64,000 bases of DNA from Eledone cirrhosa (taxonomy: Eukaryota), in assembly GCA_964016885.1 (NCBI GenBank), contig OZ024754.1, positions 29,512,001-29,576,000 of the forward strand, in the 5' to 3' direction. Position 1 is the stretch's first letter, and each line of letters opens with the position of its first letter. This document shows, piece after piece, positions 7,097 through 64,000 of this stretch. Position numbers and translations under genes: made by a program. Under the pieces are notes generated by a model that worked only from the letters and a program-made list of their open reading frames with translations, had not been told where the DNA came from and ran no database searches.

Positions 7097-7097
<1 letters not shown>

Positions 7098-9125
7098 GAC
7101 CTATCACATGTCTGCCCGTAATGTGGAAACTGTTGACGAGCATTGTGTCTGAGGAAATCTACCATCACCTCCACACAAACAACTTGTTGCCGGACGAACA
7201 GAAAGGATGCCGAAAGAAGTCACGTGGTACAAAGGACCAGTTGCTTATTGATAAGATGGTAATGGGGAATTGCAGGAGGAGACACACTGATCTTGCCATG
7301 GGATGGATAGACTACAAAAAGGCATTTGACATGGTGCCTCATTCCTGGATCACCAAAAGCCTGGAGATCTTCAGGGTGGCAGATAACATCAGACAGTTGC
7401 TGGGCAGGAGTATGGGGTCCTGGGAGACAGAGTTGACATCAACTGGAGTATCCTTGGGAAGCGTGAAGATCAAGAGAGGTATCTTCCAGGGAGATAGCCT
7501 GTCCCCTCTGTTGTTTGTCCTTGCCCTGATGCCCTTGACCATTATGCTGCGAAAAGTGAGAGCAGGATACAAGTTGGGAAGGGGAGAGCTTACCATCAAT
7601 CACCTCCTCTTCATGGACGATCTTAAGCTCTTCGGGAAAAGTGAGAGGGAGTTGGATGTGCTTGTTGACACTGTCCGTATTTTCAGCAGTGATATATGTA
7701 TGCAGTTTGGTATTGGTAAATGTGGAGTCATTGTGATGAGGAGGGGTAGGTTGAGCAGAAGTAACGGGATCCAGATACCAACAGGTGAGATGATAAAGGA
7801 AATTGACTCTGAGGAAGGATACAAGTATTTGGGCGTTCTGGAGGCTGATGGCATAAAGAACAAAAAAATGAAGGAATTGTTAAGAACTGAATACATTCGG
7901 AGAGTAAGGAGCGTATTGAAGTCACATCTGAACAGCAGAAATGCCATAAGCGCAGTAAATTCCCGAACTGTGTCTATTATTAGGTACAGTGCGGGAATTC
8001 TGAGATGGAATGTTGCTGAACAAAAAGAAATGGAGAGGAAGACTAGGAAGCTATTGACTATCTACAACATGTTCCACAAGAGGAGTGATGTCGATAGACT
8101 CTACCTAAGGAGATCTGAGGGTGGAAGAGGTCTTATCAGCATAGAGGACTGTGTTCAGATGGAGAAAAACAACCTATACAAATACGTGACCTATAGTAAG
8201 GAGCCAATGCTCAGAGCTGTACTGAAGGAGGGGACAGTAGGCCAGGGGATATCCAAGGAGGAAATAACATCAAGGAGGAAGAGCAGCCTTAAGGGAAAAT
8301 CCCTTCATAGTATCTTCTTTGAGAAAACTGAATTTAGAGATCCACAGACATGGAACTGGTTGAGAAGAGGAGACCTCAAAAAGGCTACAGAAGGAATGCT
8401 AATGGCTGCGCAGGAGCAGGCCCTCAAAACGAAGTGGTTGAAGCACCATATCTACAAGGAGGAGGCTAGCCCACTGTGCAGGATCTGTGGAGAGAGAGAG
8501 GAGACTGTGGCTCACATTGTGTCCGAGTGTAAACACCTAGCCCAGACCCACTATAAGGGCTGGAGACACGATGTGATGGGCAGGGTGATCCACTGGCACC
8601 TGTGCAAAGTAAACAATCTACCACATTCTGAGAAATGGTATGAGCATAGGCCAGAGGCGGTGATGGAGAACAGTCAGGTGAAGGTGCTGTGGGATTTTAG
8701 GATACAGACGGACAAAAAACTGGAACACAATAGACCTGACCTGGTGGTTGTGGATAAAGAAAAAAGATCGTGCCTGATTGTGGATGTGGCCTGCCCGTTC
8801 GACACGAGAGTGCAAGAGAAGGAGAGGGAGAAAATTAACCGATACCAGGACCTAAAGTGGGAGGTGAAAAGGATTTGGAACTGCCATGAAGTCAAAGTGA
8901 TCCCGATTGTCATAGGCGCACTGGGGACTATCTCCAAAGGTTTCCAGGGATGGTTAAAGAAAATCGGCCCCTTCACGCTTTTTGGAACGCTTCAAAAGGC
9001 ATGCTTGCTTGGAACGGCAAGAACCCTCCGATACGTCCTGAATATCTGAGGCTGCAGGTAGTGGCTTGATATTCAATCCAACGGACTTTCCAGTTAACCA
9101 ACATCAATGACTGAGATTCAAGGAA
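7097..9125 (+). mobile_element. 5'-truncated R4/Dong non-LTR retrotransposon in (TAA)n
   Basis: Near-identical to 11664-13690; open frame to the stop at 9049 (RT, CCHC, REL); (TAA)n on both sides. Confidence 0.95.
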
Positions 9126-9154
9126 TAACAAAATAATAATAATAATAATAATAT

Positions 9155-12100
9155 TAGGGAAGAAGACGCACGAGGTGACGGAGGTCATGAAATCGCTCCC
9201 GTAAGTTTTGAATTTTTAACATATTTAAACCATTTGTGAAATAACAACTCTTAGTGCAAATGCTACGTAAAGCACCCGGCTTGAGCCCCAAAAAATTCGG
9301 ACCCAAAATATATTGTTATAAGGCTCAAATATTCAAATATTCAACTTTGTATTGTACACTGTATATCCCCCCAAAAAAATGGCTATAAATGGAAGAAGAA
9401 GAACCCCCCCCCCCTCCTCTCCTCTGGCTACACTATATAGGACAGCTAAACTCACCAACACCAGAAACTAGATACACCACCCACCCCATCATCTGTGTAC
9501 ACTAAACACAACAGCATTTTCACCTTCACCGCCACCGCTCACTACGGCCATCATTACCACCACTATCCCATCACCGCCGCCACCACCCCTTGACTCCTTC
9601 ACTGCTGCTGCCACCGCTACAGCACCATCACTACAGTAATACGGTCGCATCACCGCCACCACTGCCTCGGTATCGACATCACCACCACCACTGTCTCAGT
9701 ATCGCCAACGCCGCCAGTCTCTGCTGGCTGCCACTTCCACATTATAGAATTCCTACTACTAACAAAGAGGAAGGCATCAAAATATATAGATAGACTCAAA
9801 AGAAAAAAGAAAAAACAAACAACAAAACCAAAGCAGCACAGCAACAACAGCAAAAAACGAGAAAAACAAACAGAGAAAAACAAAAACAAAAAAAGAAACC
9901 CCAAAAACGTAAAGAAAATAAGAATGAAGAGAGAAGCAAGCGGACGGACAGAGAAGAGGGGGGAAAAAGTAAAACTTAAAAAACAAAAACTAAGTCAGAC
10001 ATTCGAATACTACATTACAATGAAACTTATGCTTATTCATTTTTGGGGCCCTTTCTGCCCGTGTGTTTGTTTGTTTATGTGTGTTCGTATACAGCGTGGT
10101 GATAATGCCACACAAGGGCCAAGTGGGATGGCGGATCCACAGATGGCTATGTAAACATACATTCGCCAATCCTCGATAAGAGTGTTTAAATATCGAACAT
10201 AAACAGTTCGAATAACGGTGAAATGGAGACTAGAACGTCATGTGACAGACTCTCACCCAACAGGTGCCCCCTGGCTCAGCAGCAGGAACCTGACTGTCAA
10301 CCAAATACTGCTGATGTTGGAGGAAGAAGAAGAAGGAAAGGGGCCAGAACCAACTGGACGAAAGAATTGAATAGAACTGTTATGCAATGCTACCTGAAAA
10401 GTAACCCCAAGGAGAGGGGCTACAGGAGACGGATGCATAACATCTGGAACGAGATTGGTTTATTTAAATTAGATGAACAAAAATTGGCCGGGCAGGCTCG
10501 GGTAATAAGAACTAATGGGTGGATAAGCGAGCTGGAACTGGAGGAACTGAGCAGAGAGAATGGCTTGGAGATGGCGGGTGTAGTATGCCAGACAAGCGAG
10601 CCGGAGGGAAATGAAGGTGAGGAGGTCCTGAGAACGGAGGAACCACCCGAAGCAGACAATGATCTGAATACTGAGATAAATAATACCTGGAACAGAGATA
10701 CGGCCACTGAGGAGATGAATGCTGACGGGCTAGGACAAGATTCGGTTGACATCCTAAATTTAGTGGTAGATGAGTTGAACAATGATAGTGGGAGACCTAT
10801 GAACCTAAGATTTGTAGACAGGAAAAAGTTAAAAGAAACAACAGCTAAGGTAAACAAAGTCATCCCATACCTTGAGGCGAGGAGTCTTCACCAGTGCAAC
10901 AATATCCTCAAAGCAACAGCAAATACGGTGAGGAAACTACTTGGTATAAAAGCGAGAGGAAACAACAGACAAGAAAGAGCAGAGCCGTGGTGGAAGAAGC
11001 GACTGAGTGGGCAAATCGGGGAAATGAGAAATGACATAGGAAAGCTTGAGTCACTACTGAATGGGACACTAAAAAACATAGGCACTAAAAATAGACTGGA
11101 AATAAAATACAAAACTAGGAGTAAAAAGCTAAATATTATCATAGAGGAATTGAAGCAACGCATTGTAGCAAAGAGTGCCAAAATCAGGCGATACGAGAAC
11201 AGAGTCAGTCAGTATAAACAGAACCGCATGTTCGACAACAACCAGAAGATGCTGTTTGGACAGCTTGAGGGGAAAGAAAGAGGCAACGACTTGATCCCTG
11301 GGGCGGAACAAGCTAAAACATTCTGGAGAGGAATATGGGAGCAGGATGTTAGACACAATGCCCAGGCAGGGTGGATTGAGACAGTACAGAGGGAGATCGG
11401 TGAGCAGGCACAACAACAGAATGATTTGAGTATCACAGTTGAAACTCTTAAGGGGCAAGTCAAAAAACTAACCAACTGGAAATCACCAGTCCCAGATGGT
11501 GTGCAGGGGTATTGGATTAAACATTTAACATCCCTCCACCCGAAGCTGACGGCCATGTTCAATGACTGCTTGGTGTCGGGTGAGGTGCCAGAGTGGTTGA
11601 CAAAAGGTACCACAGTTCTGATAATGAAAGACCGAATCAAGGGTAATGATGTTACCAACTATAGACCTATCACATGTCTGCCCGTAATGTGGAAACTGTT
11701 GACGAGCATTGTGTCTGAGGAAATCTACCATCACCTCCACACAAACAACTTGTTACCGGACGAACAGAAAGGATGCCGAAAGAAGTCACGTGGTACAAAG
11801 GACCAGTTGCTTATTGATAAGATGGTAATGGGGAATTGCAGGAGGAGACACACTGATCTTGCCATGGGATGGATAGACTACAGAAAGGCATTTGACATGG
11901 TGCCTCATTCCTGGATCACCAAAAGCCTGGAGATCTTCAGGGTGGCGGATAACATCAGACAGTTGCTGGACAGGAGTATGGGGTCCTGGGAGACAGAGTT
12001 GACATCAACTGGAGTATCCTTGGGAAGCGTGAAGATCAAGAGAGGTATCTTCCAGGGAGATAGCCTGTACCCTCTGTTGTTTGTCCTTGCCCTGATGCCC

Positions 12101-13690
12101 TTGACCATTATGCTGCGAAAAGTGAGAGCAGGATACAAGTTGGGAAGGGGAGAGCTTACCATCAATCACCTCCTCTTCATGGACGATCTTAAGCTCTTCG
12201 GGAAAAGTGAGAAGGAGTTGGATGTGCTTGTTGACACTGTCCGTATTTTCAGCAGTGATATATGTATGCAGTTTGGTATTGGTAAATGTGAAGTCATTGT
12301 GATGAAGAGGGGTAGGTTGAGCAGAAGTAACGGGATCCAGATACCAACAGGTAAGATGATAAAGGAAATTGACTCTGAGGAAGGATACAAGTATTTGGGC
12401 GTTCTGGAGGCTGATGGCATAAAGAACAAAAAAATGAAGGAATTGTTAAGAACTGAATACATTCGGAGAGTAAGGAGCGTATTGAAGTCACATCTGAACA
12501 GCAGAAATGCCATAAGCGCAGTAAATTCCCGAGCTGTGTCTATTATTAGGTACAGTGCGGGAATTCTGAGATGGAATGTTGCTGAACAAAAAGAAATGGA
12601 TAGGAAGACTAGGAAGATATTGACTATCTACAACATGTTCCACAAGAGGAGTGATGTCGATAGACTTTACCTAAAGAGATCTGAGGGTGGAAGAGGTCTT
12701 GTCAGCATAGAGGACTGTGTTCAGATGGAGAAAAACAACCTATACAAATACGTGACCTATAGTAAGGAGCCAATGCTCAGAGCTGTACTGAAGGAGGGGA
12801 CAGTAGGCCAGGGGATATCCAAGGAGGAAATAACATCAAGGAGGAAGAGCAGCCTTGAGGGAAAATCCCTTCATAGCACCTTCTTTGAGAAAACTGAATT
12901 TAGAGATCCACAGACATGGAACTGGTTGAGAAGAGGAGACCTCAAAAAGGCTACAGAAGGAATGCTAATGGCTGCGCAGGAGCAGGCCCTCAAAACGAAG
13001 TGGTTGAAGCACCATATCTACAAGGAGGAGGCTAGCCCACTGTGCAGGATCTGTGGAGAGAGAGAGGAGACTGTGGCTCACATTGTGTCCGAGTGTAAAC
13101 ACCTAGCCCAGACCCACTATAAGGGCTGGAGACACGATGTGATGGGCAGGGTGATCCACTGGCACCTGTGCAAAGTAAACAATCTACCACATTCTGAGAA
13201 ATGGTATGAGCATAGGCCAGAGGCGGTGATGGAGAACAGTCGGGTGAAGGTGCTGTGGGATTTTAGGATACAGACGGACAAAAAACTGGAACACAATAGA
13301 CCTGACCTGGTGGTTGTGGACAAAGAAAAAAGATCGTGCCTGATTGTGGATGTGGCCTGCCCGTTCGACACGAGAGTGCAAGAGAAGGAGAGGGAGAAAA
13401 TTAACCGATACCAGGACCTAAAGTGGGAGGTGAAAAGGATTTGGAACTGCCATGAAGTCAAAGTGATCCCGATTGTCATAGGCGCACTGGGGACTATCTC
13501 CAAAGGTTTCCAGGGATGGTTAAAGAAAATCGGCCCCTTCACGCTTTTTGGAACGCTTCAAAAGGCATGCTTGCTTGGAACAGCAAGAACCCTCCGATAC
13601 GTCCTGAATATCTGAGGCTGCAGGTAGTGGCTTGATATTCATTTCAACAAACTTTCCAGTTAACTAACATCAATGACTGAGACTCAAAGA
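9155..13690 (+). mobile_element. Apparently full-length R4/Dong-clade non-LTR retrotransposon
   Basis: Single ORF, ~75-nt 3' UTR, (TAA)n on both sides; the 5' limit is inferred from the upstream TAA tract and is uncertain. Confidence 0.85.
10223..13615 (+). CDS. Non-LTR reverse transcriptase with CCHC knuckle and restriction-like endonuclease (1130 aa)
   Basis: [85 protein letters not shown]. Confidence 0.95.
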   Translation: METRTSCDRLSPNRCPLAQQQEPDCQPNTADVGGRRRRKGARTNWTKELNRTVMQCYLKSNPKERGYRRRMHNIWNEIGLFKLDEQKLAGQARVIRTNGWISELELEELSRENGLEMAGVVCQTSEPEGNEGEEVLRTEEPPEADNDLNTEINNTWNRDTATEEMNADGLGQDSVDILNLVVDELNNDSGRPMNLRFVDRKKLKETTAKVNKVIPYLEARSLHQCNNILKATANTVRKLLGIKARGNNRQERAEPWWKKRLSGQIGEMRNDIGKLESLLNGTLKNIGTKNRLEIKYKTRSKKLNIIIEELKQRIVAKSAKIRRYENRVSQYKQNRMFDNNQKMLFGQLEGKERGNDLIPGAEQAKTFWRGIWEQDVRHNAQAGWIETVQREIGEQAQQQNDLSITVETLKGQVKKLTNWKSPVPDGVQGYWIKHLTSLHPKLTAMFNDCLVSGEVPEWLTKGTTVLIMKDRIKGNDVTNYRPITCLPVMWKLLTSIVSEEIYHHLHTNNLLPDEQKGCRKKSRGTKDQLLIDKMVMGNCRRRHTDLAMGWIDYRKAFDMVPHSWITKSLEIFRVADNIRQLLDRSMGSWETELTSTGVSLGSVKIKRGIFQGDSLYPLLFVLALMPLTIMLRKVRAGYKLGRGELTINHLLFMDDLKLFGKSEKELDVLVDTVRIFSSDICMQFGIGKCEVIVMKRGRLSRSNGIQIPTGKMIKEIDSEEGYKYLGVLEADGIKNKKMKELLRTEYIRRVRSVLKSHLNSRNAISAVNSRAVSIIRYSAGILRWNVAEQKEMDRKTRKILTIYNMFHKRSDVDRLYLKRSEGGRGLVSIEDCVQMEKNNLYKYVTYSKEPMLRAVLKEGTVGQGISKEEITSRRKSSLEGKSLHSTFFEKTEFRDPQTWNWLRRGDLKKATEGMLMAAQEQALKTKWLKHHIYKEEASPLCRICGEREETVAHIVSECKHLAQTHYKGWRHDVMGRVIHWHLCKVNNLPHSEKWYEHRPEAVMENSRVKVLWDFRIQTDKKLEHNRPDLVVVDKEKRSCLIVDVACPFDTRVQEKEREKINRYQDLKWEVKRIWNCHEVKVIPIVIGALGTISKGFQGWLKKIGPFTLFGTLQKACLLGTARTLRYVLNI

Positions 13691-13698
13691 GTAATAAC

Positions 13699-13764
<66 letters not shown>

Positions 13765-13766
<2 letters not shown>

Positions 13767-14085
13767 GAGAGTGCAAGAGAAGGAGAGGGAGAAAATTAAC
13801 CGATACCAGGACTTAAAGTGGGAGGTAAAAAGGATTTGGAACTGCCATGAAGTCAAAGTGGTCGTGATTGTCATAGGCGCAATAGGTACTATCTCAAAAA
13901 GTTTCCAGGGATGGTTAAAGAAAATTGGCCCAGCCACGCTTTTTGGAACGCTTCAAAAGGCATGCTTGCTGGGAACAGCAAGAACCCTCCGATACGTCCT
14001 GAATATTTGAGGCTGCAGGTAGTGGCTTGATATTCATTTCAACAAACTTTCCAGTTAACTAACATCAATGACTGAGACTCAAAGA
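13765..14085 (+). mobile_element. Short 3' fragment of the same Dong family
   Basis: [14 protein letters not shown]...LRYVLNI* plus 3' UTR, between TAA tracts. Confidence 0.92.
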
Positions 14086-14119
14086 ACAATAATAATAATA
14101 AGAATAAGAATAAGAAGAA

Positions 14120-14408
14120 GAATCGATACCAGGACTTAAAGTGGGAGGTAAAAAGGATTTGGAACTTCCATGAGGTCAAAGTGGTCCCAATTGTCATAGG
14201 CGCACTAGGTACTATCTCAAAGAGTTTCCAAGGATGGTTAAAGAAATTTGGTCCCACCCCGCTTTTTGGAACACTTCAAAAGGCATGCTTGCTGGGAACA
14301 GCAAGAACCCTCCAATACGTCCTGAATATCTGAGGCTGCAGGTAGTGGCTTGATATTCATTTCAACAAACTTTCCAGTTAAATAACATCAATGACTGAGA
14401 CTCAAAGA
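14120..14408 (+). mobile_element. Short 3' fragment of the same Dong family
   Basis: [15 protein letters not shown]...VLNI* plus 3' UTR, then (TAA)n. Confidence 0.9.
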
Positions 14409-14432
14409 ACAATAATAATAATAATAATAATA

Positions 14433-36860: not shown

Positions 36861-37623
36861 CCACACCGATACAATGTAATTACCCAGCCTCCCTAGGCCG
36901 GACTTTCACTAGAATGTTAGTCTACGACTCCATTTATACCATAAACATGGTTTTGTCTTCGCGTGTATTTGTTATCCACGGTCCACATAACGACGTATTA
37001 TCTTCGCTTTTTTCCGTTCATTGCCAGGGAACGTCTTCACGAACCAAAGTGTCGTCTTCCTTCGGTTGCAACGTTTTTCGAAATATTTACTTCTGCGTAC
37101 ACAGATTGATTTTTTATTTTCAGAAGATCCCGTTAAGGGTGGAAGCAGCGTTTCCTTGCTTAAACTTTTATTTTGATATATACTAGCAGAATGGCCTGGC
37201 GTTGCTCGGGATTTGCTTTAGGGTTCTTATATATTTGTTATATATTTATCCTTATTGAGCCTCGTGAAATAAATACGTTTGTTTATATTTTGTGTATGCA
37301 AAAATATATGTACACGAATATATAATTATATATATATATATATATATAAATTGAAACAAAATGAAAACGAAATTTCATTTCTCACTCTTAGTATGGCACT
37401 TACTACTACATATATGTATGTACGTATACATGCATACTTACATTTAAGTAAGTGCCATACTAAGAGTGAGAAATGAAATTTCGTTTTCATTTTGTTTCAA
37501 TTTATCGTTTTCGGTATGCCTGACCGATTTAACTCACTCAATATGCAAATTAGGCTGCTCAGCCGTTAATTTCCATAAGGAAAGTATATACTTTCGAACG
37601 TTCAACTATCTGGCAGATGGGTA

Positions 37624-37667
37624 AACGGTGCTGATGATAGCTAACAAGCTTGAAACTAGTACATCGT
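37624..37667 (+). ncRNA. Type I hammerhead ribozyme (family A)
   Basis: ACGGTG-CTGATGA-TAGCT-AACA-AGCTT-GAAA-CTAG-TA-CATCGT. Confidence 0.8.
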
Positions 37668-38099
37668 CCCTGTGTCAGTGTTGAACAAAAAGGTGACGTG
37701 GTTGCCTTAACACCGTATGGCATAAATTCAGGCTGTTCAGTTTGTTTACAAACGAACAAAGCGACGTTATAATAAGCGCCGCTAAACTGATACGTGCATA
37801 TATGTATGTGTACCTGTATGCATATGTATATATATATGTATATATATATATATATATATGTGCATGCTACTGTACGTCTGTATACATATATGTATGTACG
37901 TATACATGCATACTTACGTTTAAGTAAGTGCCATACTAAGAGTGAGAAATGAAATTTCGTTTTCATTTTGTTTCAATTTATCGTTTTCGGTATGCCTGAC
38001 CGATTTAACTCACTCAATATGCAAATTAGGCTGCTCAGCCGTTAATTTTCATAAGGAAAGTATATACTTTCGAACGTTCAACTATCTGGCAGATGGGTA

Positions 38100-38144
38100 A
38101 ACGGTGCTGATGATAGCTAATAAGCTTGAAACTAGTACATCGTT
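38100..38144 (+). ncRNA. Type I hammerhead ribozyme (family A)
   Basis: AACGGTG-CTGATGA-TAGCT-AATA-AGCTT-GAAA-CTAG-TA-CATCGTT. Confidence 0.8.
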
Positions 38145-38308
38145 CCTGTGTCAGTGTTGAACAAAAAGGTGACGTGGTTGCCTTAACACCGTATGGCATA
38201 AATTCAGGCTGTTCAATTTGTTTACAAACGGACAAAGCGACGTTATAATAAGCGCCGCTAAACTGATACGTGCATATATGTATGTGTACCTGTATGCATA
38301 TGTATATA

Positions 38309-38360
<52 letters not shown>

Positions 38361-38595
38361 TGCTACTGTACGTCTGTATACATATATGTATGTACGTATA
38401 CATGCATACGTACATTTAAGTAAGTGCCATACTAAGAGTGAGAAATGAAATTTCGTTTTCATTTTGTTTCAATTTATCGTTTTCGGTATGCCTGACCGAT
38501 TTAACTCACTCAATATGCAAATTAGGCTGCTCAGCCGTTAATTTTCATAAGGAAAGTATATACTTTCGAACGTTCAACTATCTCGCAGATGGGTA

Positions 38596-38640
38596 AACGG
38601 TGCTGATGATAGCTAACAAGCTTGAAACTAGTACATCGTT
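38596..38640 (+). ncRNA. Type I hammerhead ribozyme (family A)
   Basis: Same fold; CTGATGA at 38603. Confidence 0.8.
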
Positions 38641-38798
38641 CCTGTGTCAGTGTTGAACAAAAAGGTGACGTGGTTGCCTTAACACCGTATGGCATAAATT
38701 CAGGCTGTTCAGTTTGTTTACAAACGAACAAAGCGACGTTATAATAAGCGCCGCTAAACTGATACGTGCATATATGTATGTGTACCTGTATGCATATG

Positions 38799-38829
<31 letters not shown>

Positions 38830-38885
38830 GTGCATGCTACTGTACGTCTGTATACATATATGTATGTACGTATACATGCATACTT

Positions 38886-38934
<49 letters not shown>

Positions 38935-43285: not shown

Positions 43286-43637
43286 AATTAAGTTAAAAGT
43301 GTACATCCACATATGTATACGGAAATATTAGTATGCATATAAATACACACATGTATACATATGTACATGTACTGAGTTTTGCCCTGGACACTTTACTGTG
43401 AGTGTCCAGCTAGTCTGTATGTAACCAAACAGACCAACCGGATTTTAGAGTAATACAGGTTTTCAAGGAAACACATTTCCTCTATTCTCCAGAGAGCCAG
43501 ACAGGATACACTTTTAACTTAATTGTTTAAGCGTCAGTCATACAATAGTGAGTTATAAGCGAAACGAAATTTAATTTCGTTTCGTTATTTGTTTTTATCG
43601 TTTACGCTGAACCGGTGCGTACAATGACTCGCGTTCT

Positions 43638-43686
43638 ATGCAAATTAGTCTGCCCACTACTAATTTTCATAGAAAAAGCATATAAC
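43638..43686 (+). promoter_or_regulatory. Conserved octamer-containing block upstream of the hammerhead (candidate snRNA-type promoter)
   Basis: ATGCAAATTAG.CTGC.CA...TAATTTTCATA...AAAG.ATATA shared by families A (37543, 38019, 38515, 62621, 63633) and B (43638, 61162). Confidence 0.4.
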
Positions 43687-43730
43687 GATATGTGCTTTTA
43701 CGATTCTCTAGAGAAGCCGGAAGATGGGTA

Positions 43731-43775
43731 AATATTGCTGATGAGATGTAATAACATCGAAACTAGTCCAATATT
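43731..43775 (+). ncRNA. Type I hammerhead ribozyme (family B), canonical core with GUC site
   Basis: AATATTG-CTGATGA-GATGT-AATA-ACATC-GAAA-CTAG-TC-CAATATT. Confidence 0.92.
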
Positions 43776-44194
43776 CCTGTCTGGCTCTCTGGAGAATAGA
43801 GGAAATGTGTTTCCTTGAAAACCTGTATGACTCTAAAACCCGGTTGGTCTGTTTGGTTACATACAGACTAGCTGGACACTCACAGTAAAGTCTCCAGTGA
43901 AAAACTCAGTACATGTACATATGTATACATGTGTGTATTTATATGCATACTAATATTTCTGTATACATATGTGGATGTACACTTTTAACTTAATTGTTTA
44001 AGCGTCAGTCATACAAAAGTGAGTTATAAGCGAAACGAAATTTAATTTCGTTTCGTTATTTGTTTTTATATATATATATATATCCATATATATATATACA
44101 TATATATATATATATGTATAAGTAAATATATATATATGTAAATATATAAGTTAAAACAAGGAAATACAAAATCAAGTCATTAGGGATATACTTC

Positions 44195-48169: not shown

Positions 48170-49243
48170 ATAAAATTGAAAAAGTGGAGAATAACATGGT
48201 CTACAGTACAAAAAAGGGAATTTATTTGCAGTCTAACGATTGTTTCACTGATAGAGTTGTCTAAAACTTGCTGAACACTAAAAGCAGTGAAACTCAATTT
48301 TAAATACGATGTTAACTCTATTAGATCTTCGGAAACTGTTAAACAAATATATATGTAACCGGCAAATTTACAAATTCAAATTACATCATCAATAATAATA
48401 TTAATAGTAAAGATATAGAGAGAAAAGGAGGAAGAAAGGGAGATAGATACAGTAAAGAAAGAAGGAGAAGAAGGAGGAAGAAGAAGAAGAAGGAAAAAGA
48501 AAAAGAAAAAGAAAAAGAAAAAGAAAAAGAAAAAGAAAAAAAAAGAAAAAGAAAAAGAAAGAGAGAAAGAAGAAGAAACTCCCCAGCTGTGGAGTCAATG
48601 TAATGCCATGCTAAGCTACCTGAATTTATAGTACATAGGTATACTATATTTGTCTCTAGGCATCTGTTTTGTAATGGGCATTTGTCAGGTAGATGGCAGT
48701 TACATTTAGCTGCTTTTCTATGTGCCGGTTCTACTATATGGTTTTGTAGATTGCTATGTACGGGCTGAGAATTGGGTTTGTTGATGTATTGTGGTGATGT
48801 GTTCAGACATGTGTTTGGTTGTGATGATGTTATATGCTTATGTTTTGTATTTGGTGTTATGGTACTTATTTGTGGGCTACTTGTATTATAAATTCTTTTA
48901 TAGTTAATTTTTATGTATGTGTGATTCTATGTTGTTGGCAGTGGGGTATTTTTCTTTTTCTTTCTTTCTTTCCTTTATCTATCTCCCTTTCTTTCTTTTT
49001 TTCTCTCTCTATCTTTATTATTAATATTATGATGATGTAATTTGAATTTGTAAATTTGCCGGTTATATATATTTTTTGTAACAGTCTCTGATGATCTAAT
49101 TGAGATAGCATCGTATTCGAAATTGAGTGGCACTGCTTCTAGTGTTCAGCAATATTTAGACAACTTAATCAGAGAAACAATTGTTAGACTGTAAATAAAT
49201 CCCCTTTTTTTGTACTGTTGACCATGTTATTCTTCACTTTTTC

Positions 49244-49250
<7 letters not shown>
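48170..49250. mobile_element. Penelope-like remnant with inverted hammerhead-bearing termini
   Basis: 48170-48380 is inverted at 49035-49250; internal minus-strand peptide KCNCHLPDKCPLQNRCLETNIVYLC (48627-48710) fits the PLE zinc knuckle and GIY-YIG start. Confidence 0.75.
49081..49192 (+). ncRNA. Type I hammerhead motif with ~80-nt helix II
   Basis: ACAGTCT-CTGATGA-TCTAATTGAG..CTTAATCAGA-GAAAC-AATT-GTT-AGACTGT. Confidence 0.75.
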
Positions 49251-49313
<63 letters not shown>

Positions 49314-49943
49314 ACAAGCAAATTATAAACGTAAACATGTAAGTATGTTTTTCAAACGGTGCGCGAGTTTGAAATTAGAAATTAGAAATTATAAGCTTCC
49401 ACCGGATTTTAGACTAAAGAAATTTTTAGCCTGATAGTGGGGTTTATAACCCTCGGAGAAATGGAACAAGATGAGTGTTGCCGTACATGTACGGCAACAC
49501 TCATCTTTTTCCATTTCTCCGAGGGATATATACATATATATGTGTATATATATGTATATATATGCATAAATCTGTATATATATATATGTATATATACACA
49601 TACATATATAAATGTATACATACACACACATATATATACCTATATATACATATATATATACATATATACATATATATACATACATACATATATACAAACG
49701 CATCCACATTTTCATATGTGTGTGTGTGTGTGTTTGTGTGTTTTAAATGTCAACTAAGAAATAAAACAATACAGGAGAACAATACAGTACAATGCTGATA
49801 TATATCAGTTTAACGCTTGCTCTAGTAGGAAAACGTTCTGAATATTTCAGACGCCGGTACTTTATTGGAAATAAGAATAAGACACAAGAGAAATAGAGGA
49901 TAGAAAAGGTTAAATATGTGGAGAAAATGAAAAGCATTATATA

Positions 49944-50645
49944 CAGGGTGCGGACGGTATTTGAGGACAGATTTATGGTTTAAAAAAAAAACGCTTATAT
50001 AATAACAGAAAAAAACTGTTATTTTTAAATAAAAATAACAGAAACATAAAACTAAATTATCGATTTGATAATTTCCTTCAATAAAACCACCATAAGCTTC
50101 AATAACTGTTCTACGAGGGGTCGAAATCGTTTACAAGCTCGGATTAAGTGATCCTTATTCATATCAGACATGACTCGAACTATGACGGCTTTCAAAGAAT
50201 CTTTGGTGTTATGGGGGTGTTCATTGACATTTGTCTCAACGATGCTCATGGTAGTCCAGTCGATTGAGATCTGGAGAATTAGGAGGCTAAATGTTGAGGG
50301 TGATGTGATCATGCAAATTGTCGCCCATCCATTCTTGTGTTATTTGAGCCTTGTGTGATGGTGCAGAATCTTGTTGAAAGACATAAGGCTTTCCATTGCA
50401 TACACTGTTGATCCAAGGCTTAACTACTTTATCCAGAACCTCAATATACGCCACAACATTCACCCTAAGGCCTTGAGGAAAAACGTGAGGAGGCCTCACA
50501 TGTCCTTCGTTGCTAACAACACCCAAAACCATGACACTTGCAGAAAATTTTGTGTGCAGTATTCTTGGAACCTCAGAAGGATCTGCACATAGCCACCTGT
50601 CGTTTCTTCTGTTAGTTTTCTGGTCCTGGTCAAAGTTTTTCTAAT
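49944..50645 (-). mobile_element. Truncated Tc1/mariner (DD37D, maT-like) transposon, frameshifted copy
   Basis: TA|CAGGGTG end; YVFQQDSAPSH..PNSPDLN. Confidence 0.85.
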
Positions 50646-51762
50646 GTGTATTTGGTCAGCCATTTGAAGTTACATATACACTTTTATGTATTTTCTCTGC
50701 AAGATAGCTACAGGGAAATCGTGTGTTGAAACCAATATTGTCACATTTGTGAATGGTTATTTTCCCAGTATTAGCAATAAAAAGAAATGCACGCACTATA
50801 TGATTTGCACTTCATCTTTATTGCTCGTTTTTCGTTCGTTCGTCAAAGTTATTTCATCACGCATTCTGTGACCTCAATGACTATCTATTCTCTTGCGTAC
50901 TTCCTCTTCTTTCTGATCGTAAAATTCTACCCCATCTTGTCTTTTGTTCTGTGCAGACTATTGATAAAATGTCTATCCACAAATAAAATAATGCATACAT
51001 ATATACTTACATACATACAGAAAGTTGTTGTGACAACAACTGGGGGCCTTTCACTCCCAGCCTAAAAAAAAAGTATTATTTGGGTGTCCGTTGACTACTG
51101 AGTTCCTCTGCCCTTTGTCGTGTCTTGTATTTCATCCTGCAGGGTGTCTAAATATTACCCTCCTCACCAAGTATATAATAAGATCCATATCTACACATAC
51201 AGACATGCATACATATCTACCTAGTTGATGTTGTGTAAATTCCAATGAGAGAGTCTTGTGTCTATGTTAGAAACCGACTCTCTCTCTATTGGGAAAAAAT
51301 TTGTGAAATTATAAAACCAGAAGAACATACATACATATATGGTGGCTGCCAACTCGTTTTCGAGTACGGCCACTACTTTATATCCATGTAGGAGAACCCC
51401 TACCGATGGGCTGAACGAGTGTGACCTTTTAGTCCAGTCAGCGACTTGAAAACTCTGGTACAAACACTACACTTGTGACAATTATTGACACATAGTGCTG
51501 GGCCCATGGTACCATGTGATGACAAGTGCAGAGAGATCTCCAGATATAAAGCAATGCCTGTGCCGTGAAGCTTTTATAGTGAGCAAAGGCACTGCACAAA
51601 GCCAGTCCCACTCTCTTAACCAAGATGATATTTACCAAAAAGAAGAACAAGTCAACATCATTGGATACCATCAGGGTTGCAGGTGTTATATCAGAGTTTT
51701 CCTTCTCCTAGAATTCTGCCTTGACAAAGGCTAAGGGGTCATCTCTCCCGGACATATATACA

Positions 51763-51796
<34 letters not shown>

Positions 51797-51817
51797 CATA
51801 CATACATATATACATAC

Positions 51818-52264
51818 ATGAAAATAAAAACTGCCACCATATTAAACTACAACGGGCCTGATATTGTTGTTTTGGACCACACATTGAAATCGTACTTTGT
51901 TGTAGAAATCAGCTGCCCACTTGATGTAAACGTTGTTATAAATATATGGGAGAAGGGCATCTACGGACCATTTATGAGGAGTTTGCAGATCCGATATACA
52001 AGATACCCCTTCATCTTCATACCCATCATTATTGGACACGGGGTCGATAAAGTACCAGTAATGTACTGGGTAATTTCTGGCCTTGTGCCAATAGTAGAAA
52101 CAATTATTGGAGCTACAGGTTATATACTAACCCGCTTGGACCAAAGTATAACTGAACTTGGATTTGTGAACAAAGAGCGCAGCTCCCTTATTCATAGACT
52201 ACAAATGGCTGTGATAGCAGGCACCTTCAAAATTTGCAAAACATTCTTTCTTTTCAAGGTATGA
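51818..52264 (+). pseudogene. REL endonuclease 3' fragment of an R2-superfamily non-LTR element, with an in-frame SINE insert
   Basis: PDIVVLD..FVVEISCPLD..IPIIIG; the paralogue 59219-59590 lacks the 75-nt insert. Confidence 0.75.
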
Positions 52265-56474: not shown

Positions 56475-57339
56475 GCCAAATCAACTTTTTCAAATACAAG
56501 TCGATGTTGAACGGTATGTCAAATCTATTTATCTATAAAACTGTCTATATTGTATTTTGTCCGAAGAAGGCATAACATATTGTTAATATGATATCCCTGA
56601 AATATATATAGTGAAATAAATATGGTTTATAAATATAGTTTCCATTTATTTAATATCGTAAATATACTCCAAATACTTGTTGAGTGCTTTTATATCAGTT
56701 ATAAATATTTACTAGTTGTAACCCAACAATTTAAATATAACTTTCCATATATATATATATATATATATATTAGAAATTAGAAATTATAAGCTTTCACCGT
56801 ATTTTAGACTAAAGAAATTTTTAGCCTGATAGTGGGGTTTATAACCCTCGGAGAAATGGAAAAAAGATGAGTGTTGCCGTACATGTACGGCAACACTCAT
56901 CTTTTTCCATTTCTCCGCGGGATATATACATATATATGTGTATATATATATGTATATATATGCATAAATCTGTATATATATATATATATATGTATATATA
57001 CACATACATATATAAATGTATACATACACACACATATATATACCTATATATATATATATATATACATATATATACATATATATATACATATATACAAACG
57101 CATCTACATTTTCATATGTGTGTGTGTGTTTGTGTGTTTTAAATGTCAACTAAGAAATAAAACAATGCAGGAGAACAATACAGTACAATGCTGATATATA
57201 TCAGTTTAACGCTTGCTCTAGTAGGAAAACGTTCTGAATATTTCAGACGCCGGTACTTTATTGGAAATAAGAATAAGACACAAGAGAAATAGAGGATAGA
57301 AAAGGTTAAGTATGTGGAGAAAATGAAAAGCATTATATA

Positions 57340-58046
57340 CAGGGTGCGGGCGGTATTTGAGGACAGGTTTATGGTTTTAAAAAAAAAACGCTTATATAAT
57401 AACAGAAAAAAACTGTTTTTTTTAATAAAAATAACAGAAACATAAAACTAAATTATCAATTTGATAATTTCCTTCAATAAAACCATCATAAGCATCAATA
57501 ACTGTTCTACGCGGGGTCGAAATCGTTTACAAGCTCGGATTAAGTGATCCTTGTTCATATCAGACATGACTCGAACTATGAGGGCTTTCAAAGAATCTTT
57601 GGTGCTATGGGAGTGTTCATTGACATTTGTCTCAACGATGCTCCATACATGGTAGTCCAGTCGATTGAGATCTGGAGAATTAGGAGGCCAAATGTTGGGG
57701 GTGATGTGATCATGCAAATTGTCGCCCATCCATTCTTGTGTTATTTGAGCCTTGTGTGATGGTGCAGAATCTTGTTGAAAGACATAAGGCCTTCCATTGC
57801 ATACACTGTTGATCCAAGGCTTAACAACTTTATCCAGAACCTCAATATACGCCACAACATTCACCCTAAGGCCTTGAGGAAAAACGTGAGGAGGCCTCAC
57901 ATGTCCTTCGTTGCTAACAACACCCAAAACCATGACACTTGCAGAAAATTTTGTGTGCATTATTCTTGGAACCTCAGAAGGATCTGCACATAGCCACCTG
58001 TCGTTTCTTCTGTTAGTTTGCTGGTCCTGGTCAAAGTTTTTCTAAT
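57340..58046 (-). mobile_element. Truncated DD37D (maT-like) transposon; ORF 57448-57960 is the transposase C-terminus
   Basis: QQD + 37 residues + D (WPPNSPDLNRLDY); TA|CAGGGTG terminus. Confidence 0.9.
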
Positions 58047-59218
58047 GTGTATTTTGTCAGCCATTTGAAGTTACATATGCACTTTTATGTATTTTCTCTG
58101 CAAGATAGCTACAGGGAAATCGTGTGTTGAAACCAATATTGTCACATTTGTGGATGGTTATTTTCCCAGTATTGGCAATAAAAAGAAATGCACGCACTAT
58201 ATGATTTGCACTTCATCTTTATTGCTCGTTTCTCGTTCGTTCGTCAAAGTTATTTCGTCACACATTCTGTGACCTCAATGACTATCTATTCTCTTGCGTA
58301 CTTCCTCTTCTTTCTGATCGTAAAATTCTACCCCATCTTGTCTTTTGTTCTGTGCAGACTATTGACAAAATGTCTATCCACAAATAAAACAATGCATACA
58401 TATATACTTACATACATACATACAGAAAGTTGTTGTGACAACAACTGGGGGCCTTTCACTCCCAGCCTAAAAAAAAAAAGTATTATTTGGGTGGCCGTTG
58501 ACTACTGAGTTCCTCTGCCCTTTGTCGTGTCTTGTATTTCATCCTGCAGGGTGTCTAAATATTACCCTCCTCACCAAGCATACAATAAGATCCATATCTA
58601 CGTATACAGACATGCATACATATCTACCTAGTTGATGTTGTGTAAATTCCAATGAGAGAGTCTGTGTCTATGTTAGAAACCGACTCTCTCTCTATTGGGA
58701 AAAAATTTGTGAAATTATAAAACCAGAAGAACATACATACATATATGGTGGCTGCCAACTCGTTTTCGAGTACGGCCACTACTTTATATCCATGTAGGAG
58801 AACCCCTACCGATGGGCTGAACGAGTGTGACTTTTAGTCCAGTCAGCGACTTGAAAACTCTGGTACAAACACTACACTTGTGACAATTATTGACACATAG
58901 TGCTGGGCCCATGGTACCATGTGATGACAAGTGCAGAGAGATCTCCAGATATAAAGCAATGCCTGTGCCGTGAAGCTTTTATAGTGAGCAAAGGCACTGC
59001 ACAAAGCCAGTCCCACTCTCTTAACCAAGATGATATTTACCAAAAAGAAGAACAAGTCAACATCATTGGATACCATCAGGGTTGCAGGTGTTATATCAGA
59101 GTTTTCCTTCTCCTAGAATTCTGCCTTGACAAAGGCTAAGGGGTCATCTCTCCCGGACATATATACAAACATACATACATACATACATACATATATACAT
59201 ACATATATATATACATAC

Positions 59219-59590
59219 ATGAAAATAAAAACTGCGACCAAAATAAACTACAACGGGCCTGATATTGTTGTTTTGGACCACACATTGAAATCGTGCTTTA
59301 TTGTAGAGATCAGCTGCCCACTTGATGTAAACGTTGTTATAAACATATGGGAGAAGGGCATCTACGGACCATTTATGAGGAGTTTGCAGATCCGATATAC
59401 AAGATACCCCTTCAGCTTCATACCCATCATTATTGGAGCTACAGGTTATATACTAACCCGCTTGGACCAAAGTATAACTGGACTTGGATTTGTGAACAAA
59501 GAGCGCAGCTCCCTTATTCATAGACTACAAATGGCTGTGATAGCTGGCACCTTCAAAATTTGCAAAACATTCTTTCTTTTCAAGGTATGA
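59219..59590 (+). pseudogene. REL endonuclease 3' fragment of an R2-superfamily non-LTR element
   Basis: YNGPDIVVLD..CFIVEISCPLD..IPIIIGATGY. Confidence 0.75.
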
Positions 59591-60788
59591 CAATTTCTTT
59601 TTATTTACAACATTGCCACCAGGAAGGTGGCCGGTCAAAAATGTACTCGAAATTAAGAGAAAGAGAAACACACATATATACATGTATGTATGGTCCCGTA
59701 ACTCCTAATAGAGCCGCTTGGGTGCCGTATTGACATATGGCATCTCTTGCGCATTTTGAGCCTGGCGGAGCCCATTCCTCTCCAGGCCTGAATACAGCAG
59801 ATTTCCTCCAGAAAGGGATAGAAAGTGAGAGAGAGTGGCAATGAGAAAGAGATATAGACGAAAAATCGACCCCAGTTCTAGACAGGCACTTTTTTTATTC
59901 ACCTCGAGTGGAATTTGAACTCAGAGAGCAGAGAGGTGGAATGAATATTATAATGCATTCTAGCCGACGCTCTAACGATTCTGCCAATTTGCCACTGTAA
60001 CCCGTAAAGAAGAAAAGATCAACAACATCGGTAACTACTGAGCCGCAGGTTTTATATCGGAGTTATCCCAGTTTCCTGGGTTGCCTTCTCATAGAAGAAT
60101 GCCCTGACAACTGCTAGGGGTCCTTCACTCCCAGTGATTTAACCGCGCGATCGTGTATCCAGCCTAATTATTTCTATGAACATACATACATGCATACTGT
60201 GATGCAGTATGATATAATATAATATAATATGATATATAATATAATAGATTATAATATATAATATATAATATAATATATAATATAATATATAATATAATAT
60301 ATAATATAATAGATTATAATATATAATATAATATATAATATAATATATAATATAATATATAATATAATATATAATATAATATATAATAACAAATAACGAA
60401 ACGAAATTAAATTTCGTTTCGTTTGTAACTCACTTTTGTATGACTGACGCTTAAACAATTAAGTTAAAAATGTACATCCACATATGTATACTGAAATACT
60501 AGTATGCATATGAATACACACACGTATACATATGTAGATGTACCAAGTCTTTCACTGGTTACTTTACTGTGAGTATCCAGCTATTCTGTATGTAAACACA
60601 CAGACAACCCGGTTTTTAGAGTCATACTGGTTTTTGAGGAAACACCTTTCCTCTATTCTCCAGAAAGCCAGACAAGGAATATTGAACTAGTTTCGTTGTT
60701 GTTACTACTGCCCTCTACTAATTTTCATAGAAAAAGCATATAACGATATGTGCTTTTACGATTCTCCAGGAAGGCCGGTAGATAGGTA

Positions 60789-60833
60789 AATATTGCTGAT
60801 GAGTTGTAACAACAACGAAACTAGTCCAATATT
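60789..60833 (+). ncRNA. Type I hammerhead ribozyme (family B), GUC site
   Basis: AATATTG-CTGATGA-GTTGT-AACA-ACAAC-GAAA-CTAG-TC-CAATATT. Confidence 0.92.
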
Positions 60834-61254
60834 CCTTGTCTGGCTTTCTGGAGAATAGAGGAAAGGTGTTTCCTCAAAAACCAGTATGACTCTAAAAACC
60901 GGTTTGTCTGTGTGTTTACATACAGAATAGCTGGATACTCACAGTAAAGTAACCAGTGAAAGACTTGGTACATCTACATATGTATACGTGTGTGTATTCA
61001 TATGCATACTAGTATTTCAGTATACATATGTGGATGTACATTTTTAACTTAATTGTTTAAGCGTCAGTCATACAAAAGTGAGTTACAAACGAAACGAAAT
61101 TTAATTTCGTTTCGTTATTTGTTTTTATCGTCTCCTTTGAACCGGTACGTACTCACACTCTATGCAAATTAGTCTGCCCACTACTAATTTTCATAGAAAA
61201 AGCATATAACGATATGTGCTTTTACGATTCTCCAGAAAGGCCGGTAGATAGGTA

Positions 61255-61299
61255 AATATTGCTGATGAGTTGTAACAACAACGAAACTAGTTCAATATT
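61255..61299 (+). ncRNA. Type I hammerhead ribozyme (family B), GUU site
   Basis: Same fold, with GAAA-CTAG-TT-CAATATT. Confidence 0.88.
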
Positions 61300-62609
61300 C
61301 CTTGTCTGGCTTTCTGGAGAATAGAGGAAAGGTGTTTCCTCAAAAACCAGTATGACTCTAAAAACCGGTTTGTCTGTGTGTTTACATACAGAATAGCTGG
61401 ATACTCACAGTAAAGTAACCAGTGAAAGACTTGGTACATCTACATATGTATACGTGTGTGTATTCATATGCATACTAGTATTTCAGTATACATATGTGGA
61501 TGTACATTTTTAACTTAATAATATATAATATAATATATAATATAATATATAATATAATATATAATATAATATATAATATAATATATAATATAATATATAA
61601 TATAATATATAATATAATATATAATATAATATATAATATAATATATAATATAATATATAATATAATATATAATATAATATATAATATAATATATAATATA
61701 ATATATAATATAATATATAATATAATATATAATATAATATATAATATAATATATAATATAATATATAATATAATATATAATATAATATATAATATAATAT
61801 ATAATATAATATATAATATAATATATAATATACTTTTGGCACAAGGCCAGCAATTTTCCAGTGTATTACTGGTACTTTATTTTATCGACCCCGTAAGGAT
61901 GAAAGGCAAAGTTAACCTCGGCGGGATTTGAACTCAGATATAATATAATATAATATAAAAATATAATCTTACTACAATTAAGGCTAACATTAAACTGAAA
62001 CACACACTTTGGTATTCATTGTCGATAGACGAGACTGAATAAATTATTTGCTAATGTTGAATACGCCATTGGAATGAGAACAGTCTAAGAAGTAAATTCA
62101 TGCATTCAAATCCACTGTGTAGTTAGTTACTAATTCAGTTAATTGCCATTTTTTCTACATCATCTAAAACGTCCATAAATTCTAATAATTGTAATATCCA
62201 TAAATGGCCGATAAACATCTGTGTTACTTTTGTAATAGTAACGTAATTGTTGGTAATCAAATAAATATACTATTAACCATCATTGAACGGAGAATGTGCT
62301 AGGGAAAATAATTCAAACTTAATAAAAAAAAAAAGTCAAGATAGAAATTTTATCCACAGATTTTGTGAAATCCATGGAAAAAATCAATAGTCTTAACTCA
62401 GAATATAATTGAGGTTAAATACTCATCCTTCAATTTGGAAAAACTACAAATGCTCTTTATAGTCTTAAAAAGACTATTTCACGAAACTTTTCAGTGGGGT
62501 TAGTCACGTTTGTAGTCGTTCATCAGTAGAGCCCAAACACGATAACCAAAATCACTGCTAAAATATGCCAGAAAGGGAATATATATATATTTATATATAT
62601 ATATATTTA

Positions 62610-62911
62610 GCTGACTCGATATGCAAATTAGGCTGCTCAGCCGTTAATTTTCATAAGGAAAGTATATACTTTCGAACGTTCAACTATCTGGCAGATGGGT
62701 AAACGGTGCTGATGATAGCTAACAAGCTTGAAACTAGTACATCGTTCCTCTGTCAGTGTTGAACAAAAAGGTGACGTGGTTGCCTTAACACCGTATGGCA
62801 TAAATTCAGGCTGTTCGCTTTGTTGACAAACAAACGAACAAAGCGGCCGGCGTTATAATAAACGTCGGCTAAACTGATGCGTGCATATATGTATGTGTAC
62901 CTGTATGCATA

Positions 62912-62960
<49 letters not shown>

Positions 62961-63407
62961 GCGTGCTACTGTACGTCTGTATACATATATGTTTGTACGT
63001 ATACATACATACTTACATTTAAGTAAGTGCCATACTAAGAGTGAGAAATGAAATTTCGTTTTCATTTTTTTCAACTTATCGTTTTCGGTATGCCTGACCG
63101 ATTTAACTTACTCAATATACAAATTAGGCTGCTCAGCCGTTAATTTTCATAAGGAAAGTATATACTTTCGAACGTTCAACTATCTGGCAGATGGGTAAAC
63201 GGTGCTGATGATAGCTAACAAGCTTGAAACTAGTACATCGTTCCTGTGTCAGTGTTGAACAAAAAGGTGACGTGGTTGCCTTAACACCGTATGGCATAAA
63301 TTCAGGCTGTTCGCTTTGTTGACAAACAAACGAACAAAGCGGCCGGCGTTATAATAAACGTCGGCTAAACTGATGCGTGCATATATGTATGTGTACCTGT
63401 ATGCATA

Positions 63408-63479
<72 letters not shown>

Positions 63480-63923
63480 TGCTACTGTACGTCTGTATAC
63501 ATATATGTATGTACGTATACATACATACTTACATTTAAGTAAGTGCCATACTAAGAGTGAGAAATGAAATTTCGTTTTCATTTTTTTCAACTTATCGTTT
63601 TCGGTATGCCTGACCGATTTAACTCACTGAATATGCAAATTAGGCTGCTCAGCCGTTAATTTTCATAAGGAAAGTATATACTTTCGAACGTTCAACTATC
63701 TGGCAGATGGGTAAACGGTGCTGATGATAGCTAACAAGCTTTAAACTAGTACATCGTTCCTGCGTCAGTGTTGAACAAAAAGGTGACGTGGTTGCCTTAA
63801 CACCGTATGGCATAAATTCAGGCTGTTCGCTTTGTTGACAAACAAACGAACAAAGCGGCCGGCGTTATAATAAACGTCGGCTAAACTGATGCGTGCATAT
63901 ATGCATGTGTACCTGTATGCATA

Positions 63924-63970
<47 letters not shown>

Positions 63971-64000
63971 GCGTGCTACTGTACGTCTGTATACATATAT
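62610..64000 (+). mobile_element. Retrozyme-like tandem array, family A (at least 3 units, periods 496 and 516 bp; runs off the window)
   Basis: CTGATGA cores at 62709, 63205 and 63721; the third has GAAA changed to TAAA. Confidence 0.85.

Follow-up and report, generated by a model that had tools for sequence, protein, structure and literature searches.

Animal non-LTR retrozymes and their circular RNAs have been described by Cervera and de la Pena (2020; PMC7229834), the link of retrozymes to Penelope-like elements by Li et al. (2026; 10.64898/2026.07.22.740005), and animal retrozymes are reported to be heavily and constitutively transcribed. On what drives this transcription the consulted portions of both papers are silent and describe no internal promoter ('promoter' occurs twice in the former, each time for T7, and the word is absent from the latter); in the literature covered, a promoter is described only for newt and schistosome repeats. 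The question is raised by the hammerhead repeats in the 64,000-nucleotide stretch of DNA analysed here (the window), in which a preliminary description had placed an octamer-containing block upstream of each ribozyme core and read it as a promoter belonging to each unit.

Tandem hammerhead units in the window have the features of non-LTR retrozymes

The host genome comprises 3.0 Gb and is rich in microsatellites, with a repeat landscape suggestive of a cephalopod mollusc. The window holds two related hammerhead repeat families, A and B, with tandem units of 466-516 bp and a GC content of 0.34-0.36 (Table 1); long arrays of units are found on C1. Each A or B unit carries an internal (AT)n hairpin and one type I hammerhead, whose stem I is long and whose stem III is a palindrome of two pairs. 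Hammerheads were recognised via motif and fold: the core motif is present in eight of the nine units in the window and mutated in one, and the local hammerhead folds have z scores of −3.1 and −4.9. A comparison of the window with Rfam returned nothing at gathering score, hammerheads included. The sense strand of the units has no stop-free frame of at least 110 aa, and the antisense frames reach only 124-137 aa, running through the microsatellite. Folded as a circle, the A monomer has a minimum free energy of −160.6 versus −107.1 ± 4.3 for 30 shuffles, and the B monomer one of −158.9 versus −95.1 ± 4.1 (30 shuffles). With a hammerhead per unit, short, non-coding, low-GC (<45%) tandem units and a self-paired monomer, the A/B element is an ordinary non-LTR retrozyme on all testable features, its self-cleavage and circles being predicted. 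Hammerhead-like cores of other repeat families lie at 17291 (+) and at 25620, 40160, 46201, 55943 and 62526 (−).

Table 1 Family A and B features in the window; listed octamers are perfect unless a variant is given.
Feature	Position	Strand	Details
Family A array, 3.1 units of 476-496 bp	37407..38888	+	octamers 37543, 38019, 38515; cores 37631, 38107, 38603
Inverted partial copy of family A unit 3′ end, on 5′ side of array beside (AT)n	37346..37446	−	
POU-type 12-mer TATGCAAATTAG (octamer 37543-37550), also 5′ arm of hairpin	37542..37553	+	matches host U6, U6atac and MRP promoters
PSE-like core, TCAG at octamer +16, in hairpin loop and inner stem	37557..37565	+	host Pol II snRNA profile 5.8
3′ arm, complement of octamer arm (RNA hairpin), not PSE	37567..37577	+	folds; differs in A′, I, C, D, J
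TATA-like box (TATATA 37585-37590) within 16-base palindrome	37580..37595	+	
Predicted transcription start, C|A, octamer +72 (inferred)	37615	+	projected from host PSE (−55 to −58) and TATA (near −30)
Type I hammerhead, long stem I, 4-bp stem II, 2-bp palindromic stem III	37600..37686	+	motif, fold
Hammerhead core; predicted cleavage after 37661	37631-37661	+	fold z −3.1 on copy at 38070-38170
Family B copy	43507..44069	+	octamer 43638, core 43738; inverted segment 43281-43506
Family B array	60708..61519	+	truncated block with core 60796; octamer 61162 with core 61262
Inverted segment of family B array	~60383-60705		
Second family A array, begins 16 bases before octamer, exceeds window	62605..64000	+	octamers 62621, 63117 (variant ATACAAAT), 63633
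Cores of second family A array	62709, 63205, 63721	+	GAAA to TAAA in the last

An octamer-containing block is conserved upstream of the ribozyme core

The octamer precedes the hammerhead core sequence CTGATGA by 88 bases in family A and by 100 bases in family B, confirming the interval of 88-100 bp given in the preliminary description. A perfect octamer accompanies seven of the nine A/B cores in the window (Table 1), ATACAAAT takes its place at one (63117) and the block is 5′-truncated at one (core 60796). The A sequence quoted earlier is found at 38019, 38515, 62621 and 63633, and the unit at 37543 departs from it by one base (TTTCC for TTTTC). Families A and B are identical at 40 of the 50 positions of the block (octamer arm 12/12, loop 7/13, 3′ arm 11/12, TATA part 10/13), as compared to 25/39 and 21/33 in the two strands of stem I, 7/14 in stem II and 53-67% in the remainder of the unit. 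Outside the catalytic core, no other stretch is as well conserved between A and B as the block. The claim that it is more similar than the flanking helices thus holds numerically (50-67% in helices and elsewhere), but A and B are collinear and homologous over the entire unit, and their likeness in the block partly reflects common descent.

By itself the octamer shows no enrichment in the window, where its 10 matches compare with an expectation of 6.3 and are equalled or exceeded in 7 of 100 shuffles. Genome-wide, the octamer-plus-core pattern has 20,057 matches and its reversed control none, placing the link between octamer and core far beyond chance; a looser core-only pattern produces 102,489 matches, some of them counted twice, against 1,790 for its control. 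Octamers without a hammerhead lie at 50311 and 57712, within a 2.7-kb duplication (96.7%; 49374-52036 and 56769-59437) that contains a transposase-like fragment.

The block resembles host snRNA-gene promoters

We compared the block with the promoters of the best-scoring host U6, U2, U1, RNase P, U6atac, U5, MRP and U12 loci, the true genes being chosen partly by score and by the look of their promoters (one of ten U6atac loci). The 12-mer TATGCAAAT(T/G)AG is found at −76 to −78 in five host promoters (U6 L001, L002 and the L003 array, U6atac L122, MRP L286), where the element has the form TATG(C/G)(A/T)AAT(T/G)AG and is followed by a TATA box at −30. We take this 12-mer to be a full POU2 site. 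It is present in five of six distinct host Pol III-type promoters, the exception being RNase P, which has ATCAGT at −66 and no octamer. Octamer and TATA box are 46-49 bp apart in the host Pol III genes, whose terminators are T5-T11. The element is in place in nine of 11 distinct U6 upstream sequences, displaced by an insertion in one type and absent from one, and nine of the ten U6atac loci are without it and look like retrocopies. Some U6 array copies (L007, L008, L010-L013, C19) have a ~190-bp insertion at the TATA box that displaces octamer and spacer.

No octamer lies within 300 bp of any of 17 host Pol II snRNA genes (16 U1, U2 and U5 genes, plus U12). Common to the host U1, U2 and U5 promoters is (A)TCAGT at −55 to −58 (15 promoters; anchored by the search in that region), and U12 has CCAGC at −58. 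From this comparison a host snRNA promoter code emerges, with a proximal octamer in U6, U6atac and MRP and ATCAGT in U1, U2 and U5. Set against the U1, U2 and U6 upstream regions, as the preliminary description had suggested, the block gives a divided picture: its 12-mer recurs in U6 and its YCAGY word in U1 and U2, but the octamer is absent from U1 and U2. The organisation of host Pol II snRNA genes is therefore not matched, and, since none of those examined carries a proximal octamer, the block appears to be a hybrid without a host model.

Most U1, U2, U6, RNase P and U12 promoters of the host also have the word YCCCTT, roughly between −250 and −285; AATTAA occurs ~33 bases before the Pol II PSE, and the host 3′ box reads AAAWYCAGAYT (loci L001-L066, L121, L287). 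The upstream YCCCTT and AATTAA elements have no clear presence in the retrozyme units. One family B copy (L071:282) sits ~1.2 kb upstream of a U1 gene.

Octamer, PSE-like core and TATA-like box keep near-constant spacing across families

A sample of 115 distinct octamer-plus-core copies comprises 21 of A, 8 of A′, 6 of I, 32 of C, 32 of B, 12 of D, one of J and three (L219, L225, L231, of 16 unclassified) that were dropped as probable chance or unrelated matches, so that the spacing counts below cover 112 copies. Most families were collected with the octamer pattern, so that the constancy of this element from family to family (A, I, C, B, D and J) is partly circular; copies within a family are not independent, and A, I and C share ancestry. 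Beyond the octamer, the columns common to all or nearly all of the six family majorities are a T before it, AG at +9/+10 and CA at +17/+18, the latter forming the centre of a YCAGY word located 16 bases past the start of the octamer.

Scored with the host Pol II PSE profile (host leave-one-out 7.0-16.3), this PSE-like core reaches 13.3 and 9.1 in C, 5.8 in A, −0.4 in D and −6.2 in B. In A (copy at 38019, identical at 37557) it is the top of 290 upstream sites and 0.15% of background sites score as high, while 14% of background sites are as good as the one in B. Similarity to the host PSE, on which the preliminary description depended, is accordingly found in C and A (strong and moderate, respectively, relative to the host Pol II element ATCAGT) and is poor in B. 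On the U6-type profile B is the best of all families, with 6.8 (host leave-one-out 8.2-14.3; background 95th percentile 5.7).

The octamer-to-TATA distance is 40 in all 21 A and all eight A′ copies, 41 in all 32 B copies, 43 in five of six I and 25 of 32 C copies, 39-42 in eight of 12 D copies and 42 in the single J copy. It is nearly constant although the spacer sequence varies between the seven subfamilies, and at mostly 40-43 across the 112 copies it falls outside the host Pol III range of 46-49. A pyrimidine-AG follows the TATA-like box by 27-33 bases in 103 of the 112. TATA-like words are common in the AT-rich host genome; only two of 35 background octamers have a TATA-like box at that distance.

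Furthermore, we scanned the 200 bases upstream of the core jointly for PSE and TATA box in ten representative copies and ten other hammerhead loci. The best site lay 69-77 bases before the core in six of the ten representatives (A, I, C, one D and the octamer-less F and G) and in none of the other loci. Individual P values are modest (0.015-0.445), and for A′, B, J and one of the D copies the scan did not recover the site expected.

Several families have upstream sequences of their own. Octamer-less families F (L213, L215, L184; 310-bp tandem units) and G (L099:2700, L094, L207, L209) have an ACCAGT/ATCAGT PSE and TATAAG 77 bases before the core. Family E (L099:871 (+), L175, L192, L196; in the window near 27875 (−)), apparently the commonest in the core-only sample, has CCAAT, CACCC and TATAAATA ~40-90 bases before the core, words that resemble an mRNA-type Pol II promoter. 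In family C (L133, L134, L135, L101), two extra ~33-bp repeats, each octamer-like plus PSE-like, precede the block, and one of them has an 11-base match to the host U2 PSE.

Judged by sequence, a match of the block to host snRNA-gene promoter elements is supported, its 12-mer resembling that of U6, U6atac and MRP and its YCAGY word that of U1, U2, U5 and U12 in A, I, C and D, and poorly in B. The predicted layout combines a proximal octamer, as in host Pol III genes, with Pol II-like spacing, and corresponds fully to neither the U6 nor the U1/U2 type of promoter.

Spacing and T runs favour Pol II

The octamer position, which is that of host Pol III genes, argues for Pol III. On the corresponding alternative the block would be a type 3 (U6-like) Pol III promoter, with POU site and TATA box recruiting Pol III and unit-length RNA arising by leaky read-through of T runs. 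The proximal 12-mer is indeed confined to host Pol III-type genes, family B resembles the U6 spacer, and, according to the consulted part of PMC2220036, Schistosoma hammerhead repeats use a Pol III promoter. The T runs can be read in two directions: they lie at or near both 3′ ends of B insertions, as such a promoter would have it, but as T5-T7 runs they also precede the next hammerhead in many units. With T7 in six of 11 A units and T5-T6 in all 20 B units (26 of 31 overall), they resemble host Pol III terminators. Moreover, a YCAGY word of the Pol II type lies ~26 bases before the TATA box in families A, I, C, D, F and G, and the octamer-to-TATA distance of 40-43 departs from the 46-49 of host Pol III genes. 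Insect Pol III snRNA promoters are reported to keep PSE and TATA box at a tightly conserved distance (PMC1761439, consulted in part). The shorter spacing, the U1/U2/U5/U12-type core and the T5-T7 runs argue for Pol II, and spacing and T runs together favour Pol II read-through. We therefore favour transcription of the units by Pol II and consider transcription by Pol III unlikely.

A significant snRNA 3′ box was absent from A and B (P 0.12 and 0.08), which suits read-through, and from eight of nine representatives overall; the one in D (P 0.02, at +280) is probably outside the element. Four sequencing runs of unrecorded kind were used as contigs. As contigs cannot show transcription starts, a rise in depth near 38096 (run X6) was not used as start evidence, and single low-depth contigs from runs X4 and X5 were likewise left out.

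The octamer arm pairs with a variable partner in RNA

In every one of 12 representative blocks the octamer arm is predicted to pair with a partner lying 25-35 bases further downstream (−4.2 to −13.2 kcal/mol; z ≤ −1.5 in eight of the 12), whereas the same stretch of the five host Pol III promoters barely folds (−0.9 to −3.9; z −0.3 to 1.4). The conserved 3′ half of the block, TAATTTTCATA, had been described as PSE-like; we rejected it as a PSE, as it complements the octamer arm, changes between families and has no match to the host element. The predicted PSE-like core sits instead in the less conserved hairpin loop. The octamer/PSE-like/TATA-like promoter proposed for each unit is thus supported by sequence, with the PSE placed elsewhere and an RNA hairpin added.

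The partner strand and the pairing register vary from family to family (A/B, A′, I, C, D and J), while the octamer strand is constant, and RNAalifold on ten representatives across families found no common pairs and no shared helix. Since no helix is common to the families, a single conserved RNA helix does not account for the constancy of the octamer. The contigs of run X1 show two common variants within the block; both are A′ changes in the 3′ arm, one breaking and the other making a pair.

The pairing of the octamer arm in every representative and its lack in the host promoters, together with the strong self-pairing of whole monomers, would also suit a block that acts as RNA only, as a hairpin in the circular RNA and perhaps a binding site for protein or reverse transcriptase, with transcription supplied by outside promoters. 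We regard this as improbable, because partner and register vary by family over a fixed octamer strand, and because the match to the host element, the fixed TATA spacing and the PSE plus TATA box in the octamer-less F and G would be left unexplained. Least probable of all is a relic, once captured from a host snRNA-type gene and no longer needed, since the collinear homology of A and B and the missing common variants over octamer and loop in run X1 contigs (by estimate non-significant given 22 listed unit differences) are set against an octamer arm (12/12) and a fixed TATA distance that survive ~40% divergence elsewhere, and against the upstream amplification in family C of octamer-plus-PSE-like repeats, including the one that matches the U2 PSE.

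Insertion anatomy requires read-through for inheritance of the putative promoter

The 5′ truncation points of the arrays vary, and an inverted partial copy often lies on the 5′ side. The 3′ end falls on one of two fixed points ~65-90 bases apart and mostly runs into (AT)n. The unit 3′ end lies ~45 bases before the next octamer, so that the promoter is inheritable only via read-through combined with hammerhead-to-hammerhead or circular RNA. Retention of the promoter via read-through fits the tandem, 5′-truncated insertions. A second block shared by A and B lies at the unit 3′ end, a GAAA...TTTCGTTT hairpin (37473-37505 and 61090-61130 in the window, and equivalents), which is a candidate reverse-transcriptase start signal.

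The same anatomical marks are described for Penelope-like insertions in the available portions of 10.1101/2021.04.23.441226 and PMC11167929, and A and B share with these the inverted 5′ partial copy, the tail and the AT-rich target. Penelope-like fragments are abundant in the genome. One Penelope-like family from the window, followed at 29 loci, has only inserted or AT-rich pieces in common with A or B; the sole pLTR-type hammerhead seen in it has no octamer, and Pfam gave no name for its endonuclease.

A Penelope-like fragment with inverted terminal pieces, a hammerhead-like motif at 49088 and many genomic relatives occupies 48170-49251, and presumably includes the CNC..CPL..C linker. At 7097-14430 lies a non-LTR retrotransposon, which we take to be R4/Dong-like, with a 1141-aa frame at 10190-13612 (RVT_1, E 1.4e-21; zf-RVT) and a partial tandem beside (ATA)n/(TAA)n repeats.

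A proposed internal snRNA-type promoter that survives retroposition

We propose that the block serves a non-autonomous hammerhead retroelement (a non-LTR retrozyme) as its internal snRNA-type promoter, most likely one used by Pol II, and that it also folds as RNA; we put the probability of this reading at roughly 0.6. The observations behind it are the sequence matches and spacings, the folds, the number of copies and the anatomy of the insertions. The following steps are predicted, from factor binding, choice of polymerase and start site through cleavage and circle formation to the mobilising enzyme. A POU factor on the 12-mer would help SNAPc onto the PSE-like core 15-16 bases away, TBP would occupy the TATA-like box ~26 bases past that core, and transcription would start near octamer +72, just inside hammerhead stem I. 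The polymerase would continue through into the following unit, two successive hammerheads would release a monomer that holds the next unit's promoter and can circularise, and a Penelope-like reverse transcriptase would copy the monomer into AT-rich sites as 5′-truncated tandem arrays. Because the monomer contains the promoter, each new array would bring its own promoters, and because the promoter travels as RNA, a partner 25-35 bases downstream would be selected to pair with the invariant octamer arm. The predicted start at 37615 falls in the 5′ strand of stem I, and stem I reaches upstream of it, which is what a multimeric or circular mature RNA would lead one to expect.

More tentatively, and with the odds against it, the retrozymes of the host genome may be promoter-capturing circular RNAs whose families acquired different classes of host promoter immediately upstream of the hammerhead: the hybrid promoter in A, A′, I, C, B, D and J, a plain Pol II snRNA PSE plus TATA box in F and G, and a CCAAT/CACCC/TATA mRNA-type promoter in E. 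In the hybrid, half a helical turn less between octamer and TATA box would switch a U6-like promoter to Pol II and so render T-rich units readable, and the partner strand would evolve to hide the motif in an RNA hairpin.

The internal snRNA-type promoter would offer a precise answer on transcription for an invertebrate family with ~20,000 marked copies, naming the elements and predicting both the start base and the polymerase. A natural hybrid promoter also suits study of how spacing affects polymerase choice, and tens of thousands of putative POU/SNAPc sites could affect nearby transcription.

Comparison with known systems

An snRNA-type promoter in newt satellite 2 was reportedly described by Coats, Zhang and Epstein in 1994, and its layout is that of vertebrate Pol II snRNA genes. 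The promoter of Schistosoma SMα consists of tRNA-type internal boxes, not of octamer, PSE and TATA box. The newt precedent invoked in the preliminary description is stated in PMC2220036, the consulted part of which gives an internal snRNA promoter for Pol II to newt satellite 2 and a Pol III promoter to the Schistosoma repeats. Like newt satellite 2, the units described here are tandem hammerhead repeats with a short stem III and a predicted internal snRNA-type promoter kept through retroposition. Unlike in the newt repeat, the octamer abuts a PSE-like core at ~−72 (the host Pol III position) and is followed by a TATA-like box, the block is also a predicted RNA hairpin, and promoter activity is predicted from sequence. 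With SMα they share the tandem hammerhead repeat with a promoter of its own (here predicted), and differ from it in that SMα uses Pol III (PMC2220036, same part).

The elements resemble the described animal non-LTR retrozymes in their non-coding, low-GC tandem units, one type I hammerhead, self-paired predicted circles and many thousands of copies, and differ in the 466-516-bp A/B units with an internal (AT)n hairpin. Partial tandems, an inverted 5′-truncated copy, a one-sided tail, AT-rich targets and a minimal stem III are shared with Penelope-like elements and pLTR hammerheads; unlike these, A and B have no ORF, their 3′ ends are ~65-90 bases apart compared to the 30-40-bp tail given in the consulted descriptions, and they have no homology to the one autonomous-type family checked. 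With the host type 3 Pol III promoters (U6, U6atac, MRP) they have the same 12-mer and a TATA box downstream in common, but differ from them in a spacing reduced by 5-6 bases, in a PSE core that in most families takes the U1/U2/U5/U12 form, and in needing no terminator before the next unit. A literature search covering main texts, largely of non-subscription papers, returned no such promoter layout for invertebrate retrozymes. While the principle of an internal promoter is known from newt satellite 2, the predicted hybrid octamer/PSE/TATA layout appears to be new and unlike that of any host gene examined.
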